64,000 nucleotides of DNA from Spirochaetia bacterium. Its GTDB lineage: Bacteria > Spirochaetota > Spirochaetia > SZUA-6 > Bin103. Where the stretch lies: the NCBI GenBank assembly GCA_965198005.1, contig CBDAOI010000003.1:800001-864000 (forward strand), given 5' to 3'. Made by a program: the position numbers and the translations under genes. The notes beneath the pieces were generated by a model. The model worked only from the letters and a program-made list of their open reading frames with translations. It did no database searches and was not told the origin of the DNA. This document shows, piece after piece, positions 11,756 through 19,005 of this stretch; the first letter of the stretch is position 1, and each line of letters opens with the position of its first letter.

Positions 11756-13414
11756 CTACGCGGCCGGAGCAGAGCGGTAGCTGGCACAGCGCGGGTCGCG
11801 CCGTCGGTTATGGACGGTGCAGCGCAAACGCAAATTGACCATGTCGTTATTGCCGCCCTGCGCCACCGGCACGATGTGGTCGATCTGCACCAGGTGGGTC
11901 GACCCGCAGGTCACGCCGGTGAGCGGGTCCTGGTAGCAGCAAGCCCCACCGTCCCTTCGCCACACCGCACGTCGCACCGCCTCTGGAATGTGCCGCCTCC
12001 CCCGGCGCGCGCGGGCGGATTCGGGTGCTGGCGGGCGCGACGCCGTGCGATCTCCGGACAGCCGCGCTCGCACACCGGAGTGCAACTCGGCGGCCGTCCG
12101 GGAAGGCCCCTTCCCTGCCCGCGGCGCCTGCTGGTTCTGCGCCGAACTCGGAGTGCCGCGGCGAACCTGCTCGCTTCCCGGGGTCGCTACTGTCTGCGCT
12201 TGCCGGTTCGGCGCCGAACCGCGGGCAGGTGCGACGCTGGAGTCGGCCGCAACAGGACCGGGCGCAGGAGAGCTGGCAGCGACCGAGCCGGCGTGGCGCG
12301 GAGTCCGAGCACCACTCCGATCCGCTGCCCGCGGCGCTTGTTGGTCCTGCGCCGAACTGCCACCGCGTGCGCCCGCGGTGCCGGCGGCGACCGGACCGCG
12401 TGTGGGAAAGCCGCCATCAACCGAGCCGGCGTGGCGCGAAGTCCGATCGCCACTCCGGTCCGGGACCCGCGGCGCCTGTTGGTTCTGCGCCGAACTGCCG
12501 GCAAGTGCGACGCCGGGGCCGGCGGCGACCGGAGCGGGTGCGGGGCTGCCAGCAACCGGACCCGCGGCAACCGAACTGCGGGCAGCCGCGGTCGCGGGCA
12601 CCCCCTCGCCAGGCACACTAGTGGCGCAGGTCGACGAGCCGGCCTCGGGCGTAGCCGCGCCCACCGCACCTCCGGCGACCCGGCGTTTGCCGGTGCCGCC
12701 GCGTTCCTGCTCGCACGTTTCGGCGGGCCGCGTCGGCACCGCCGCCCCCCGCTTGGCCCGGCCCCGCTCCCGCATCGGGTCGTACTTCCGCTCCGCCTGC
12801 TGCAGCAGGTAGGCGAGCAGTTGCCCGGTGGTGAAGCGCGGGTTCACGTGCGACAGCCAGCCCTTCAGCTTGGCGATGGTGTCTATACTGCTCTGGTCCA
12901 GGATCACCCGCACCGCGTAGCGGCCGCCGCCGAGGGCGCGCTGCTGCTCTCGCGGCAGGCCCAGCTCGGGCTCCAGTTCCGCCAGCAGCTTCTCGGTCTC
13001 ACGGGCCGACTTGTTGGCGACCAGATCGACCAGTTCGACCTTCTGGTCCCGGGTCCATGCCGGTGGTGGTTCCGTCGCGGGCGGCGGCGGCGCAGACTCG
13101 CGGGCCGCACCCGGGGGCGGCGACGCAGCGGCCGACGCCAACGCCGCCGGGGATGCGGCCGCGGCCTTCCCGGCTGCGGCCGCGGTTTCCGCCTCCGGCG
13201 ACGTCGCCGGCCCTGGCGCCAGCGCTGCGGCAGGCGCGACTTCCTGGGTTCCCGCGACTTCCGTCTGCGCCGGGTGCACCCCTCCAGCCGACGACTCCCC
13301 GGCGCCCACACTTACAGCGCCCGTCGCCGACACGCTCGCCGACTCACGGACGGCCTTACGGGCCGCTTTCCGCGCACGCTTTTCAATCGCGTTCTGCAAC
13401 TGACTCGCGGTGAC
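11756..13414 (-). pseudogene. HNH endonuclease with a long Ala/Pro-rich repeat linker, probably N-terminally truncated
   Basis: RHIPEAVRRAVWRRDGGAC..C..QIDHIVPVAQGG..NLRLRCTVHN. In-frame stop just upstream of VTASQLQNAIE, with no convincing start. Confidence 0.75.
12118..12500 (-). repeat. In-frame repeats (SSAQNQQAPR) inside the HNH gene
   Basis: CCCGCGGCGCYTGYTGGTYCTGCGCCGAACT at 12118, 12328 and 12466 (spacings 210 and 138). Confidence 0.85.
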
Positions 13415-13543
13415 ACCGCGTCAGCACCGCTCCTCCCGCTCGCGTCCGGTGAGGGCTGGCGGCGTGGCGCCGTCGTCGGGAGTGAAAGCCGGTGTTACCG
13501 GCGCAAGCAAGAAACGGGCCACGGGTCGCAGACCCGAGATCCG

Positions 13544-13794
13544 ATCATTGGCCTGTTGATCGCGCTGGCGGTCGGCATCTACTCGGCGGTGCGCCAGGAC
13601 ACGTTGGGCGATTACGCTGGCCGCAGCGTCGCCATCTTCGGGTTGGCCACGCCCAACTTCTGGCTGGCCCTCATGGTCCTGATCTTTCCCGGCATCTGGT
13701 GGGGCTGGGCGCCCCCGCTGCGATTGTTTGACTTCAGCGAGGATCCGCTGGCCCACATCGGCGCGTTCCTCATCCCCGGGCGGATCCTGGGTAC
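13544..13794 (+). pseudogene. Internal fragment of a third DppB-like permease
   Basis: IIGLLIALAVGIYSAVRQD...GLATPNFWL...ILGT, matching the paralogs at 1652 and 19095. Confidence 0.85.
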
Positions 13795-15710
13795 GAGCGC
13801 CAGGCTAACTGGCATATGACAGAGGGTGAAAGTCCCTCGGAACGAAGGAGCAGCCAATCCACGTTTCTCCGCGAGCCGTGCGTTGGCACCTGCGAGGGTG
13901 CAGGCGAAGCGTCGGCAGCGGTGCGTGCGGGCAGAGTTATGGAGCGCCGCAAAATACGACATCTGGAGTGCCGAGACTCTGTACTCGGTCGAAGGCAACA
14001 CCGGTCGAGCCAGTATGGTGAGGATCGACCGGGCTCCACGGCGTCGAAGAACTCAGGCACGTGCGTACGTCATATACCGGGACCTGGGAGGTCTTCGGGT
14101 CGTCCCGGCGAGTCGTCGCCGGGACCGCGGAGGGAAGGCGTGAGGCTGGACCAAAGATGAACGACCCGAAGGAGTCGGACATGGGCATAGTAGCGGCGAA
14201 GCCGGCGAACAAGGGAGCGCAAGCGACTGCGGAGACGGTGGAGCGAAGGCCCATGACCAACGGGAATTCGCAAGGTCAAAGCACGGGCCGGACGCAGAGT
14301 CGGGCAACCGTGACACAGGCGGCCGAGCGGATACGGCAATTCGTAAAGAGAGAACCGCAGGAGAAACTCACTGCGCTGCTGCACCACGTGACGCCGGAAG
14401 CGCTGCGGGTGGCCTATTACGCGCTGAAGCGTGAAGCGGCCCCGGGGGTGGACGGGATGACGTGGCGGGAGTACGAGACGGGGTTGGAAGTGCGCTTGCA
14501 CGACCTGCACCGGAGAGTACACACAGGAGCGTACCGAGCGACCCCGGTACGGCGGGTCAACATCGACAAGCCGGACGGAGGCACACGACCGCTGGGGGTG
14601 GCCGCGCTGGAGGACAAGATCGTCCAGAAGGCCGTGGTGGATGTGATCCTGACACCGATCTATGAGGAGGAATTTCTCGGGATCAGCTATGGGTTTCGAC
14701 CGGGGCGAGGGGCACACGATGCGTTGGACGCACTGGCCTACGCCATCGAACGGCGCAAAGTGAACTGGATATTGGACGCGGACATTCGCGGCTACTTCGA
14801 TTCGATCTCGCGGGACTGGTTGATCAGATTCCTGGAGCATCGGATTGGAGATCGGCGGGTGCTGCGGCTGATAAAGAAGTGGCTGCGCGCTGGGGTACTG
14901 GAAGAAGGCCGACAGATCGACGCGGGGCGGGGTACAGCGCAAGGGTCGGTGATTTCACCGATGCTCGCGAATATATACTTGCACTACGTGTTGGACCTGT
15001 GGGTCACCAAGAAGTGGCGGCCGCAGGAGGCGCGCGGAGACATGATCATAGTGCGCTACGCAGATGACTATGTCGCCGGGTTCGAGCATCGTGACGATGC
15101 GGAACGCTTCCTGCGGGAACTGAAGGAGCGATTCAGAGACTTCGAGCTGGAACTGAACGCCGACAAGACCCGACTCCTCGAGTTTGGACGGTATGCCGAA
15201 AGGAACCGCCGAGCACGTGGGGAAGGGCGACCGGAGACGTTCGACTTTCTGGGTTTCACGCATTATTGCAGGAAGGACAGGAAAGGACGCTTCGGGCTGG
15301 GGCGGAAGCCAATTCGGAAGCGGATGAATCGTACGCTGAAGAGGATCAAGATCGAGCTCCGCAGACGAATGCATGATGACGTGATGGAAACCGGGCGCTG
15401 GCTGGGACGGGTACTGCGCGGATGGCTCAACTACTACGCGGTACCCACCAGCTACCGCTACCTGCATCGATTCGTGTGGCGTCTGCGAGGAATCTGGGTA
15501 AAGATTCTACGCCGGAGGTCCCAGAAGGACCGATTCTCCTGGGCTTGGATGCTGGCAATCAGCATCGAGCTGTGGCCCCAACCCCGAATCGTACACCCAT
15601 GGCCGGACCGGCGATTTGCCGTCAACCACCGAAGGTAGGAGCCGGATGGTTTAACGACCACGTCCGGATCTGTGCGGGGGGCGTCGGGTAACCGGCGTTC
15701 CTACCGCGCC
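13795..15710 (+). mobile_element. Group II intron (bacterial class E-like), full length
   Basis: DI motifs (GGGTGAAAGTCCC; GAAGGCAACAC); EBS1 GTACTC at 13981-13986 pairs with IBS1 GGGTAC at 13789-13794; DV from 15639 (GAGCCGGATG...CGTCCGGATC) and DVI ending CCTACCGCGCC. Confidence 0.92.
14157..15638 (+). CDS. ltrA: Group II intron reverse transcriptase/maturase without an endonuclease domain
   Basis: APGVDG, KPDGGTRPLG, SYGFRPGR, DADIRGYFD, GTAQGSVISP, RYADD, FDFLGF, X domain RGWLNYY. Start could be GTG at 14310. Confidence 0.93.
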   Translation: MNDPKESDMGIVAAKPANKGAQATAETVERRPMTNGNSQGQSTGRTQSRATVTQAAERIRQFVKREPQEKLTALLHHVTPEALRVAYYALKREAAPGVDGMTWREYETGLEVRLHDLHRRVHTGAYRATPVRRVNIDKPDGGTRPLGVAALEDKIVQKAVVDVILTPIYEEEFLGISYGFRPGRGAHDALDALAYAIERRKVNWILDADIRGYFDSISRDWLIRFLEHRIGDRRVLRLIKKWLRAGVLEEGRQIDAGRGTAQGSVISPMLANIYLHYVLDLWVTKKWRPQEARGDMIIVRYADDYVAGFEHRDDAERFLRELKERFRDFELELNADKTRLLEFGRYAERNRRARGEGRPETFDFLGFTHYCRKDRKGRFGLGRKPIRKRMNRTLKRIKIELRRRMHDDVMETGRWLGRVLRGWLNYYAVPTSYRYLHRFVWRLRGIWVKILRRRSQKDRFSWAWMLAISIELWPQPRIVHPWPDRRFAVNHRR

Positions 15711-16246
15711 CTCCCTGGGTTTGGAAGGCCGTCAGGGGGCCGCTATGAGGCCGACTCGGACGCCGAGCGGCCCGCTGCCGGCCAATCGGCCGTGAATGCC
15801 GGCCCTGGAGGGGTCCGAGTGCCGAGATCGTCGCCGCGGCGGCGCTCGTGCTGCCGCTCCTGTCCGAGCAGCCTCGAGCGCCGCGATGGCCGCAGCAACG
15901 GCCCATTCCCCCCGCGCGCGGCGACTGACGGAGCGGCGGCTTGACGCCCGAGGAGGTCTGCCGTCGCTAGTAGCTGGTCCTGGAGGTGGCTGCGACCCGA
16001 CCAGGCTGGGCTGCGGGCGGTGGCGGCGCGGTCAATACGGAGCCAGCGGTTGCCGGGAATCGGCGTTGACGGGTGTTGCAGGGGGTACCCCAGGCTTACC
16101 CCCGAGGGGCTGGAAGGCCCTCAGCGGGCCGCTGTGAGGCCGACGTGGACGGTGAACGGCCTGCGGACGGCCACATCGCCGGCGAATGACGGCTCCGGAG
16201 GGGCGATGCGCCCGAGTCGGCGCCGCGAGGGGCTCTCGGCTGCCGC
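15711..16246 (+). repeat. Degenerate ~147-bp direct repeat (15711-15857 and 16100-16246)
   Basis: TGGAAGGCCGTCAGGGGGCCGCTATGAGGCCGAC vs TGGAAGGCCCTCAGCGGGCCGCTGTGAGGCCGAC. Both end in CTGCCGC at an offset of 389. Confidence 0.75.
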
Positions 16247-16297
16247 GGCTGCCCGAACGAAATCTCAAGAAACCTTCAATTCGCCAGTTTTTTCCTG

Positions 16298-16325
16298 TTG
16301 ATTTGTGCCGCAGGGGTGGCATACT
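16298..16325 (+). promoter_or_regulatory. Sigma70-like promoter
   Basis: TTGATT-16 nt-CATACT with an extended -10 TG and an AT-rich upstream tract. Confidence 0.45.
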
Positions 16326-16759
16326 GAAAGTCTCAGGTTTGAACGGATGCAAAAGATGGCTGAAAACACTACTCAGAGCTGCCACCGGTTAGGGGCAGCG
16401 CAACCGGCGCGTCCTACCCTTGCCCATCCCCCCCTCCCCGGAAATCCTTTCGCGGCGGGGGTTGGCAAATGGTGGGGCCCCCTCCAGACTGTCTCTTCAG
16501 GCCATCGACTGCCGTTCACCGAGAATTGCTGGGCCGATTCGTGGTTGGCGTCCACCGGAGCGGAGGTTATGATAGGGTGGGATGCAGTCAATCGCGACAT
16601 CGCGACTACATCTGGGTCTGGGTATAGCTGTGCCTCACCTGCGGAGGGCTTGAGTGACCTATAACACGTCAACGCTTATGACACTCTGTTCCCCTGACAG
16701 CCGCTCGCCGAGATTTGCTGAAAATCAGCTCGCGGCGGGCTTGCTTAATGGTGAGGAGT

Positions 16760-16778
16760 CCCCCCCCCCCCCCCCCCC
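16760..16778. repeat. C19 homopolymer
   Basis: Run of 19 C seen directly. Confidence 0.9.
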
Positions 16779-17184
16779 GCCAGCTGTTCAGATAGCCGAG
16801 AACCGCTGACCGCAGGGGCCGCGCGCCCTCTCCTTCGCCCACGATCGCGACCGTCCCGGACCCCCGTCCGGGGGCAACTCGTTCCGAAACACACCCATCG
16901 CCGGCGTCGCCGGCCCAGCACACTCCCTGCGCACCGCCCCGCATCCCATGGTGTCACCCCGGACGGGCGGCGTTCGCAGTCGTACCAGGAGGAGCCCGCA
17001 CTCGGATGCAGATCCTGACCGTATACGGATAGAGCGGATCCAGCCCGAGCGGCCCCCCGCCGACCTCGGCGCTCCCGCCTGCCGCCCTTCGCTTTCGGGT
17101 CGCCTGCAATGCAAGCCAGACCTCGGGAGTAGGCGAAGGACCGGCAGTGGCCCGAGTACTCCCAAACAACAGGAGATCTACACT

Positions 17185-19005
17185 ATGAGTAGCGGAATGA
17201 CCAAAACGTGCCTCGCGGTGCTGTTTGGGGTCGTCCTGACCGCAACCGGCCTGTGGGCCAGCGCGGCCGCCGAAGAGGAGCCGGCCGCGGCGATGGAGAA
17301 GGAGATGGTGATGGACCCGGCCACCGGCAAGCAGGTGACCGCCCCCGAATATGGCGGCACCCTCACCGTCCCCATCCCCGATGACCCGCCGACGGTCGAC
17401 ACCTACTACGGCACGGGGGGCGTTATCGCCGGCCTCGTGGTGGAGAAGCTCGGCATCGGTGACTGGGGCGTCGATCGCGACACGTTCGACTTCCGCACCA
17501 CCTACCTGCCCGACCACGTCATCGTCGGCCGCCTGGCCGAGCGCTGGGAGCAACCCGACCCGACCACCATCATCTTTCACATCCGTGAGGGCGTGAACTG
17601 GCACGACAAGGCGCCGATGAACGGTCGCGCGCTAACCGCCAAGGACGTGGAATTCAACTTCCACCGCTACGTCGGAATCGGTAGCGGCTTCACCGAGGTG
17701 CCGGAAGCCGTCGCCCGCTCGTCGACCCTGGACGATCTCGGTATCACTTCGGTAACGGCCCAAGGCAACACCGTCGTCTTCAAGCTGGCCGAGGTGAACC
17801 TTGATGCGCTAAAGAACATTCTGACGGTGAACGTCGCGTTCATCTATCCGCCAGAGGTAATTCGGGCCGGGACCGGCATCGACATCGGCGATTGGCAGAA
17901 CCTGGTAGGCACCGGCCCCTACGAACTTACCGACTGGGTGGAAGGCAGCTCCGTCAACTGGGAGAAGGCTCCTGACTACTGGGGCTTCGACGAGAAGTTC
18001 CCGCAGAACCGACTGCCCTACATCGATAGCATCAACATGCTGGTGATGCCGGAGTCGCAAACGCGTCTGGCGGCCTTGCGCTCAGGGAAGCTCGATTTCG
18101 TCGGCTTCCAAACCAATGCGCAGGTTACGTCGATCGACCAGCTGGAGAGCCTGCAACGCACCAACCCCGACATCGTGGGGGAGGGCTACAATTACCGATC
18201 TGAGACCTCGCCCGTCATTAATATGAGCAGGCCGCCCTTCGACGATGTCCGCGTACGCCACGCCCTGCAGATGGCACTCGACGTGGAGGGCGCCGGGGGT
18301 ACCTATTTCAAGGGTTACGCAGTCACTCAGCCGCAGGGCTGGCTGGGGCGCAACCTGTACCCCTACATGAATCGCTACGAGGACTGGCCGGCGGACCTGA
18401 AGCGGTTTTATTCGTATGACCCGGCCGGCGCGGAAGAGCTCCTCGACGAGGCAGGCTTGCCGCGTGGCGCGGACGGCACCCGTTTCGAGCTCGAGTTGAC
18501 GGCTCTGCCAACACTTGGGGACGCTGGTTGGAATGAGATCATAGCGGACAGCTGGCGGCAGATCGGCATTGATGTAACGCTCACGGTCCAAGAGGGCCCA
18601 GTGTTTACTGCGAAGCGCAACGAGTGTGACTTCGACGTTCAGATGCTGATTGGTGGATACGAATGGAATCCAACCGGCCAGCTCTTGCATCACGTCACCG
18701 ACGGCGGATTCAACCCGGGCTGCCAGGGATCTGCCGGCAATAGTGACCCGGTCTACGATGCGATGGTCGAACGCGTGCAGGCGGCGACCAGCTTGGAAGA
18801 GCGCCAGGCGCTCTCGAGGGACGCCTCGGATTATCTCAACCGTCAGCACTTTGCGCTCTGGGGCGCGCGGGTGCCCTCATTCAACGTGTTCTGGCCGTGG
18901 GTGAAGGGCTACAACGGCGAGGCCGACCCCGGCGACGCGGACCGAATCCTGATCTACTCGCGCGTCTGGATCGATCAGGATCTGAAGCGCGAGATGGGAT
19001 TCTGA
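17185..19005 (+). CDS. Peptide ABC transporter substrate-binding protein (family 5)
   Basis: AGGAG RBS; signal peptide; PEYGGTL, LAERWEQPD, GTGPYEL, PPFDDVRVRHAL. Confidence 0.93.
   Translation: MSSGMTKTCLAVLFGVVLTATGLWASAAAEEEPAAAMEKEMVMDPATGKQVTAPEYGGTLTVPIPDDPPTVDTYYGTGGVIAGLVVEKLGIGDWGVDRDTFDFRTTYLPDHVIVGRLAERWEQPDPTTIIFHIREGVNWHDKAPMNGRALTAKDVEFNFHRYVGIGSGFTEVPEAVARSSTLDDLGITSVTAQGNTVVFKLAEVNLDALKNILTVNVAFIYPPEVIRAGTGIDIGDWQNLVGTGPYELTDWVEGSSVNWEKAPDYWGFDEKFPQNRLPYIDSINMLVMPESQTRLAALRSGKLDFVGFQTNAQVTSIDQLESLQRTNPDIVGEGYNYRSETSPVINMSRPPFDDVRVRHALQMALDVEGAGGTYFKGYAVTQPQGWLGRNLYPYMNRYEDWPADLKRFYSYDPAGAEELLDEAGLPRGADGTRFELELTALPTLGDAGWNEIIADSWRQIGIDVTLTVQEGPVFTAKRNECDFDVQMLIGGYEWNPTGQLLHHVTDGGFNPGCQGSAGNSDPVYDAMVERVQAATSLEERQALSRDASDYLNRQHFALWGARVPSFNVFWPWVKGYNGEADPGDADRILIYSRVWIDQDLKREMGF

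Follow-up and report, generated by a model that had tools for sequence, protein, structure and literature searches.

A multi-copy group II intron family that begins GAGCG instead of GUGYG in a Spirochaetia genome

The 64,000-nt stretch of Spirochaetia bacterium DNA analyzed here (the window; assembly GCA_965198005.1, contig CBDAOI010000003.1, positions 800,001 to 864,000, or G000:C3:800001-864000 in our numbering of genomes and contigs) carries a complete group II intron that begins GAGCG and ends CC, where the group II consensus reads GUGYG...AY. This element is very probably an ordinary, recently active retromobile group II intron, with an IIB-like ribozyme of the RF02005 type and a reverse transcriptase (RT)/maturase free of an endonuclease (En) domain, and a member of a clade that has A at position 2. 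Its features, in window coordinates as are all intron positions below, are as follows.

13795..15710, plus strand: complete group II intron, 1916 nt, one of 15 full-length copies, its ends fixed by unoccupied sites
13789..13794, plus strand: intron-binding site 1 (IBS1) GGGTAC, the last six bases of the 5' exon, inside a DppB-like permease fragment; 6/6 pairing (one G-U) with exon-binding site 1 (EBS1)
13795..13799, plus strand: 5' terminus GAGCG, position 2 being A, not U; in 15/15 full copies and 21/24 5'-anchor matches, and in relatives L031/L033, L074, and L140
13829..14053, plus strand: domain I (D1) core, Rfam RF02005
13981..13986, plus strand: EBS1 GUACUC in a hairpin loop (hairpin 13975-13990); the homologous hairpin position pairs 6/6 in 21 rows
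14157..15638, plus strand: RT/maturase open reading frame (ORF) in the intron, 493 amino acids (aa) from ATG, frame open from 14061, no endonuclease domain
15639..15670, plus strand: domain V (DV), with AGC triad (15640-15642), CA two-base bulge, and non-GNRA loop
15672..15709, plus strand: domain VI (DVI), predicted fold, with bulged branch-point A15703 and penultimate C15709 paired with G15672
15709..15710, plus strand: 3' terminus CC, the penultimate C polymorphic with A across the family
15711..15711, plus strand: presumed IBS3, the first 3' exon base, C in 15/15 full copies

The group II traits found are a D1 fold, DV/DVI features, an RT/maturase ORF in domain IV, an EBS1-IBS1 pairing, and precise multi-copy insertion. 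The consensus letters at the two ends are not among them, as the 5' end is GAGCG in all 15 full copies and the 3' end is CC in 12 of them, the window copy included, and AC in the other 3. RF02005 (group-II-D1D4-6) matches domain I over its full model (positions 1 to 225) at 169.5 bits (E = 3e-49; gathering score, 49). DV and DVI have a predicted fold of −42.1 kcal/mol (z = −3.7) that contains the AGC triad and the CA bulge, with a bulged UA in DVI whose A (15703) lies 7 nt from the intron end. In the protein, RVT_1 (E = 1e-35) is the sole Pfam match, the translation contains YADD and LRGWLNYY (an RGWxNYY-type maturase motif), and the chain stops about 130 aa past the RT domain, a stretch that holds the maturase motif and no D/En domain. 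The window RT is 55 to 68% identical to annotated ltrA genes and other relatives. The initial annotation, made from the sequence, had called an intron with a YADD RT, a DV AGC triad, and an intact DVI, and RF02005, RF00029, RVT_1, and the predicted fold together confirm that call; every motif it named is where it had placed it (GGGTAC at 13789-13794, GAGCG at 13795-13799, GTACTC at 13981-13986, and CTCCCTG after 15710).

DV and DVI are nearly invariant over 16 relatives. The G of the DV AGC triad opposes A15668 rather than U, and this oddity, like the non-GNRA DV loop, is a class trait and not damage, because most relatives have both; the 3' strand of DV reads GGAUC in most of them (GGUUC in L051/L053 only). 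No convincing EBS2/IBS2 pairing was found, and a G-rich stretch lies 9 to 20 nt upstream of most sites. In J2/3 (gamma), where the initial annotation saw a G as compatible with the terminal C, and in domains II and III, the RNAalifold structure is atypical or ambiguous, and by eye none of the columns in the 12-row alignment follows the identity of the last intron base. Immediately after GAGCG, a CCAGG segment (within 13800-13809) can pair either with the nearby CUGG (13806-13809), as a local hairpin, or with a distant CCUGG (14083-14087) that sits just before a conserved GGGAG. The CCRGG, CYGG, and CCYGG segments covary in relatives (UCAGG, CUGA, and CCUGA in L063); the pairings may be alternatives to each other, or this may be the helix that actually closes domain I.

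The intron boundaries are exact, and they rest on copies and empty sites, not on pairing alone. The 3' end reads ...CCTACCGCGCC, with its last base at 15710, followed by CTCCCTG. Anchored extraction recovered 15 full-length copies (1911 to 1917 nt) in the genome, all of which begin GAGCG; their 3' ends are CGCGCC in 12 and CGCGAC in 3, and the +1 base is C in every one. A looser scan gave 24 matches to the 5' anchor (21 GAGCG and 3 GTGCG, the latter belonging to a sister lineage about 82% identical) and 20 matches to the 3' anchor (14 CC, 4 AC, one of them the sister lineage, and 2 AA). Sequencing error is excluded as the source of GAGCG because many copies carry it.

Empty sites of two types occur in the same genome (a slash marks the insertion point). 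Type 1, cctggggtat/ctccctgggtttgg, whose right side starts ctccctg, was found six times exactly and twice as a variant. For type 2, cctggggtac/cccctgcaacaccc, whose right side starts cccctgcaac, 15 rows comprised 6 exact and 4 variant empty sites, four occupied sites, and one unrelated sequence. Filled and empty sites differ by exactly GAGCG...CGCGCC, and type 1 excludes a one-base shift either way. Sibling 5' exons ending GGGTAT, GGGTAC, or GGGTGC all still pair with EBS1. The 5' splice site that the initial annotation had put before GAGCG is thus borne out by 6/6 EBS1-IBS1 pairing, 15 copies, and the empty sites, and the noncanonical GAGCG...CC termini it described are real, occurring together in 12 of 15 full copies. 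Moving the 5' end upstream by four bases, to GUAC, GUAU, or GUGC plus G, was considered and rejected, since the empty sites keep GTAY.

The family's main homing target is a repeat, of which the window holds two units and one empty site:

15711..16260, plus strand: two units of the repeat (about 350 to 390 nt each), the first of which is the 3' flank of the intron
16075..16094, minus strand: empty type 2 homing site, CCTGGGGTAC/CCCCTGCAAC, insertion point 16085/16084; the identical sequence is occupied at four other loci

The intron targets this repeat in both orientations via a near-palindromic GGGGTACCCC stretch. The repeat (about 340 to 425 nt genome-wide) is conserved over its whole unit, its core motif occurs 34 times in the genome, and it has no Rfam match. 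It often stands in short tandem arrays of two unit types, as also at G000:C1:19900-21400 and C4:167700-175400. Two arrays have an AT-richer tail of about 130 nt after their last unit (window 16260-16390), and because this tail is the same in both, the arrays may be part of a larger element.

The family is recently active and not in decay, as the initial annotation had supposed when it spoke of an active lineage. The 15 full copies are 98 to 99% identical, and the 538-codon frame is open in 13 of them. Among these 13 intact frames (the two frameshifted copies were left out of the codon comparison), 39 codons vary, 27 by synonymous changes only and 12 with a change of amino acid, so that selection on the protein is evident. 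The 5' flanks are of at least six kinds: two repeat forms in opposite orientation, the permease gene, and three to four unique sites. Removal of the intron at C3:964601 leaves a 539-codon frame open across the junction; its 3' part matches Peptidase_M78, and a Pfam search of both exon halves matched the 3' half only, with no domain bridging the junction. A 5'-truncated copy of the family lies at C3:792474-794166.

Another line of evidence comes from strand bias. Local GC skew is positive on the strand that carries the full copy in all 15 cases: 11 of 11 on C4, 3 of 3 on C3, and the single copy on C1, which is on the minus strand at a place of negative skew. With positive skew taken as marking the leading strand, every full copy lies in the lagging-strand template, the preference described for En-less introns in the RmInt1 account (PMC5894124) and in a second report (PMC7923331). 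For this count, copies within one tandem array are not independent.

Two other sets of introns occur in the same genome. An ORF-less sister intron of 646 nt (G000:C3:29297-29938, minus strand) is about 82% identical to the window intron in its RNA parts, ends GUGCG...CGCGAC, and has its own EBS1/IBS1 pair (UGCUGC/GCAGUG), so that the cell holds, next to the window family, a natural counterpart with U2. A second RF02005-type family (C4:360094, C4:411628, C4:380865, C3:760519, and C3:979111; 182 to 186 bits, about 70% identical) starts CCTCCT/GTGCG and is common to the same-genus genome G127.

The GA start is inherited, a lineage trait. We collected relatives through the protein (42 loci), through plasmid records, and through RF02005 matches, present in 26 of the 151 genomes from the class to which this genome belongs, and we placed 5' ends by a single rule, namely that the hexamer at a set position in the counterpart of the 13975-13990 hairpin pairs, G-U included, with the last six exon bases. 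Pairing was 6/6 in 21 rows (the window intron and 20 others) and 5/6 by hand in two more; three were ambiguous, and in eleven the hairpin was not found by pattern, one of these later being resolved as canonical. Ten or more families begin GUGCG. A GAGCG start is found in the window family, a family from a Dehalococcoidia metagenome-assembled genome (L031/L033), a Skermanella plasmid (L074), and the full-length metagenomic intron L140, which reads CATTGA/GAGCG...CGCAAT and has an RT 68% identical to that of the window. GAACGG or GAACAG (GAACRG) begins L036, L037, L040, and L059. Longer starts also occur, GAAAGCG in the L043 family, L055, L079, and L080 and GAUAGCG in L050; perfect 6-bp EBS1-IBS1 pairing fixes these ends, which place two more letters than GUGCG ahead of the first D1 helix. 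Some of these families are themselves multi-copy. The L043 family occupies nine loci in one genome (L043-L049, L058, and L066), within a heptamer (AGTGAAT-like) tandem repeat, and the L031-type 5' end occurs at eight loci, seven from one assembly and one (L041) from another.

A maximum-likelihood tree was built from 22 RT rows, 11 of 33 candidate loci having been dropped for want of an RT of at least 380 aa. One clade in it, with support of 96/95, has eight rows, all with a GA start (the window, L031/L033, L074, L036, L037, L040, and L059). Over the whole tree the GA label takes four changes (three to four in bootstrap trees), of which the well-supported branches force only one. Metagenomes were scanned for the GGCTAACTGG sub-family with an 18-nt pattern allowing A or T at position 2, which gave 80 loci (64 GTGCG and 16 GAGCG); a D1 profile test kept 42 of them, 40 with GTGCG and 2 with GAGCG (L138 and L140). 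Two more GAGCG loci (L147 and L167) resemble 5' fragments of the same family, and the remaining GAGCG pattern loci are chance matches. The GA start is therefore recurrent but uncommon, since only 2 of 42 confirmed introns of this sub-family begin GAGCG.

Some loci from these searches are of separate interest. The metagenome contig of L138 has a GAGCG start and its own RT, 69% identical to that of the window, with its start about 2.4 kb in from the 5' end; the intervening DNA holds another, distant RT (30% identical), an arrangement that looks like a nested intron. In low-GC relatives (L083-L090 and L101), GAGTGCG was considered as a start extended by 2 nt and rejected: L087 is canonical, its EBS1 pairing 6/6 with AAATGA before GTGCG. 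L101 has a hairpin as in L087 with an IBS1 that pairs only 4/6 by hand count, and in the remaining loci of the L083-L090 group no EBS1 hairpin stood out, so that only analogy suggests a canonical start for them.

Set beside their 5' ends, the last two bases of the introns with readable ends are as follows.

Window family: 5' GA; last two bases CC, AC, or AA
L031: 5' GA; AA
L074: 5' GA; AC
L140: 5' GA; AU
L037 and L040: 5' GA; AA
L059: 5' GA; AU
L043: 5' GA; AU
L055: 5' GA; AC
Sister intron (C3): 5' GU; AC
L051: 5' GU; UC
L053 and L054: 5' GU; AC
L073: 5' GU; AA
L075 and L076: 5' GU; AU

These data bear on whether the U2A change and the penultimate A-to-C change are a compensating pair that defines an alternative working terminus, as the initial annotation had proposed in calling them a covarying terminus. 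The two changes do stand together in 12 of the 15 full copies, and the penultimate C forms one more G-C pair, with G15672, at the foot of DVI in the predicted fold, so it is not structurally inert. Nevertheless, GAGCG goes with AC in three full copies, each on a sequence background of its own, and with AA in fragments, and among GA-start relatives outside this genome the pair is absent: the penultimate base is A in all eight with a readable 3' end (L031, L074, L037, L040, L059, L043, L055, and L140). For L036, whose DV the pattern search missed, cruder extrapolation gives CGCGAA. The penultimate C is confined to the window genome, on copies at five or more site types. Over the first 300 nt of a 20-row alignment, no column besides position 2 separates GA from GU rows (the best secondary scores are 1.4 of 2.0, in neighboring inserted letters, and then 1.2), and no covariation with position 2 was seen by eye in the last 85 nt, covering DV and DVI. 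According to the RmInt1 mutant study (PMC4238363), that intron naturally ends CC, followed by CC in the exon; its C1883A mutant is near wild type in vitro with an unaffected first step; and the contact of the penultimate base is G1, which is unchanged in the window intron, and not position 2. A compensating pair is accordingly highly improbable in our judgment. The penultimate C is a young, probably near-neutral change that arose within this genome's family. The CC end is a known, tolerated kind of deviation, given that RmInt1 ends CC and C1883A is near wild type, and is unrelated to the GA start.

The remaining explanations concern how the copies came about and whether the window copy still works. 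DNA-level multiplication, by duplication of repeat arrays and by recombination, would leave the GA start saying little about splicing competence. Three full copies do sit in one array (C4:168-175 kb) with near-identical flanks, variant sites are mosaic among copies in a way that suggests gene conversion, and the window copy itself looks like a recombinant. Such multiplication does not readily account for at least six unrelated 5' contexts, each with an EBS1-pairing hexamer and then C, for unique-site copies that share no extended flanks, for a repeat targeted in both orientations through a near-palindromic site, for the synonymous excess in the RT and the strand bias of full copies, or for GA-start families that are multi-copy in other genomes (nine loci for the L043 family and eight of the L031 type), and we regard it as improbable. 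We give almost no credence to the view that the window copy is a dead relic with mutated ends. Its flanks are mismatched, the 3' half of the permease is absent, with the best downstream match elsewhere in the genome only partial, and the permease fragment is also cut at its 5' side, all of which a relic would explain; yet the body is near the family consensus, with no window-private substitution seen by eye in 61 variable columns, the frame is open, the ends are those of the family, and splicing is still possible with IBS1 and the +1 C in place.

If the family is, as we believe, an ordinary retromobile one, its cycle can be outlined by inference from the established group II pathway. The maturase would fold the intron RNA, and EBS1 (13981-13986) together with the six exon bases before 13795 would set the 5' splice site. 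Attack of the bulged A15703 at G13795 would form the lariat, after which the freed 5' exon would attack after C15710, with the +1 C serving as IBS3. The lariat-protein particle would then reverse-splice into DNA reading GGGTAY or GGGTGC and then C, on the lagging-strand template, where cDNA synthesis would be primed by nascent DNA. Splicing at the GAGCG...CC ends would on this analogy proceed by branching. Position 2 of a group II intron is not known to have a base-pairing partner, and an A there may be tolerated for that reason.

Several points weigh against this account. No exon-exon joint was found in contigs of the RNA-library runs X11, X12, and X14, or of run X1, over 13600-15900, where the contigs cover the intron body; DNA carry-over in these contigs is possible, and their loose ends correspond to other copies or strains ending AA or AC and to the GUGCG sister, so the contigs neither support nor contradict splicing. 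The match of RF00029 to DV/DVI (15637-15709) scores 32.1 bits, below the 40-bit gathering score. With a sister at 82% identity that has GTGCG, position 2 must have flipped more than once, and near the window lineage the change may have gone in either direction. The reading of GC skew as replication direction is an assumption for the host organism, several intron fragments lie on the opposite strand, so that the bias holds only for full-length copies, and some copies in tandem repeat arrays may have multiplied with the array instead of by separate retrohoming.

The window copy has a history of its own. The 5' exon comes from a DppB-like permease gene (BPD_transp_1, weak match), a fragment of which, cut at both ends, spans 13421-13794. 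A 92%-identical paralogue of this permease continues LILGT/GLSAATMRM..., and its 3' half was not found after the window intron or beside any other copy. The copy is most simply seen as the product of recombination between two intron copies, because the 5' flank is the permease fragment and the 3' flank is a repeat unit that does not match it. Because the last 150 nt of the fragment match well over 100 paralogous sequences across the genome, peptide-type ABC permeases appear to form a very large family in it. Elsewhere in the window, a run of 19 C (16760-16778) lies between genes, upstream of a substrate-binding-protein gene (16948-19005), and a 547-aa frame on the minus strand (11756-13399) is rich in Ala/Pro/Gly repeats, overlaps long frames on the other strand, and has at its C terminus, judged by eye from the translation, an HNH nuclease-like motif.

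GUGYG...AY has served as a near-invariant rule when intron ends are located and when group II introns are set against the GU...AG introns of the spliceosome. Deviations from GUGYG have been associated with RNA subgroups (PMC4238363), and for 25% of introns the boundary tool of the database makes no prediction (PMC3245105). GUGYG is a consensus rather than a requirement, and boundary tools that demand it will miss or misplace GA-start introns. The window family is a natural, highly mobile example with a GA start and exact, independently fixed ends, in a clade that keeps GA across several phyla. In itself the element is of an ordinary or previously described kind, and so are its protein, target sites, and CC end. 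What these sequences add is an indication that the "fixed" letter at position 2 can change without stopping the spread of the element, because a whole 15-copy GA-start lineage has spread. Tentatively, and with rather more doubt than conviction, we suggest for the En-less class that the 5' terminal motif is evolutionarily plastic with mobility kept, as in the GU-to-GA clade and the GAAAGCG and GAUAGCG families. If GA and longer ends are used by branching and reverse splicing, then U2 is not required for lariat chemistry or DNA invasion, nor is a fixed register between the 5' splice site and the epsilon/lambda nucleotides, which would contradict a published suggestion that mobile introns need IBS1 directly next to GUGYG. 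The GUGCG sister, GAGCG with AC or CC, GAACGG, and GAAAGCG provide a natural variant series for position 2 and for 5'-end spacing. Full-text searches, which covered neither supplements nor key class papers, returned no published description of GA-start group II introns.

Among known systems, RmInt1 of Sinorhizobium meliloti (class D, IIB type) begins with the standard GUGCG and encodes a protein of 419 aa, compared with 493 aa for the window intron. Both introns, as far as RmInt1 is described in PMC4238363 and PMC5894124, are multi-copy and retromobile and lack an endonuclease domain. Both have a CC end followed by C's in the 3' exon (CC/CTCC or CC/CCCC in the window family; PMC4238363 for RmInt1), both have penultimate A and C among natural copies, and both share a preference for the lagging-strand template and home into a repeated genomic element. 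The traits noted in common with class D (RmInt1-like) introns are the CC terminus and the absence of an endonuclease domain. L073 (58% identical, 493 aa), which is the closest relative found in Sinorhizobium, is a different intron, with ends GTGCG...CGCGAA.

Departures from GUGYG have precedents of another kind. C.te.I1 (by 8 nt) and fungal rRNA introns (by 1 to 33 nt) splice upstream of GUGYG (PMC4024640 and PMC4424553), and in them, as in the window intron, the 5' splice site is set by EBS1-IBS1 and not by the GUGYG letters. Relatives of the window intron have 6 to 7 letters (GAACGG, GAAAGCG, and GAUAGCG) where 5 are expected before the first D1 helix. C.te.I1 and the fungal introns are described as having lost EBS2, the branch A, and mobility, whereas a bulged A and an RT gene are retained in the multi-copy families found here. 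UHB.I2, an IIB intron in a Halorhodospira integron array, has ends (UUGCG...GU) that break GUGYG...AY and lies beside a repeated recombination site (PMC7923331). It differs from the window intron in that the letters are others and it is a single copy, with no lineage-wide survey in the part of that report devoted to it.

Classes E and F (Cl.be.I2, Pe.th.I2, and Ge.ur.I1-1) have a small IIB-like ribozyme of 450 to 700 nt, compared with about 434 nt without the ORF in the window intron; like it, they lack an endonuclease domain, and their DV loop departs from the GNRA form (PMC3753933). The 5-nt DV loops described there for IIE/IIF also occur in relatives L073-L076 (GAAAG, UAGCA, GAAUU, and UAAUU), whereas the window DV loop is UAAC closed by a U-G pair, with no clear 5-nt loop. 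The class E/F introns tested in the same paper have splice sites of the GUGYG...AY form, unlike the window intron. In DV, the A facing the triad G and the non-GNRA loop agree with that paper's description of the small IIB-like classes E and F, which makes the window intron a candidate for either class, alongside class D and the g types.

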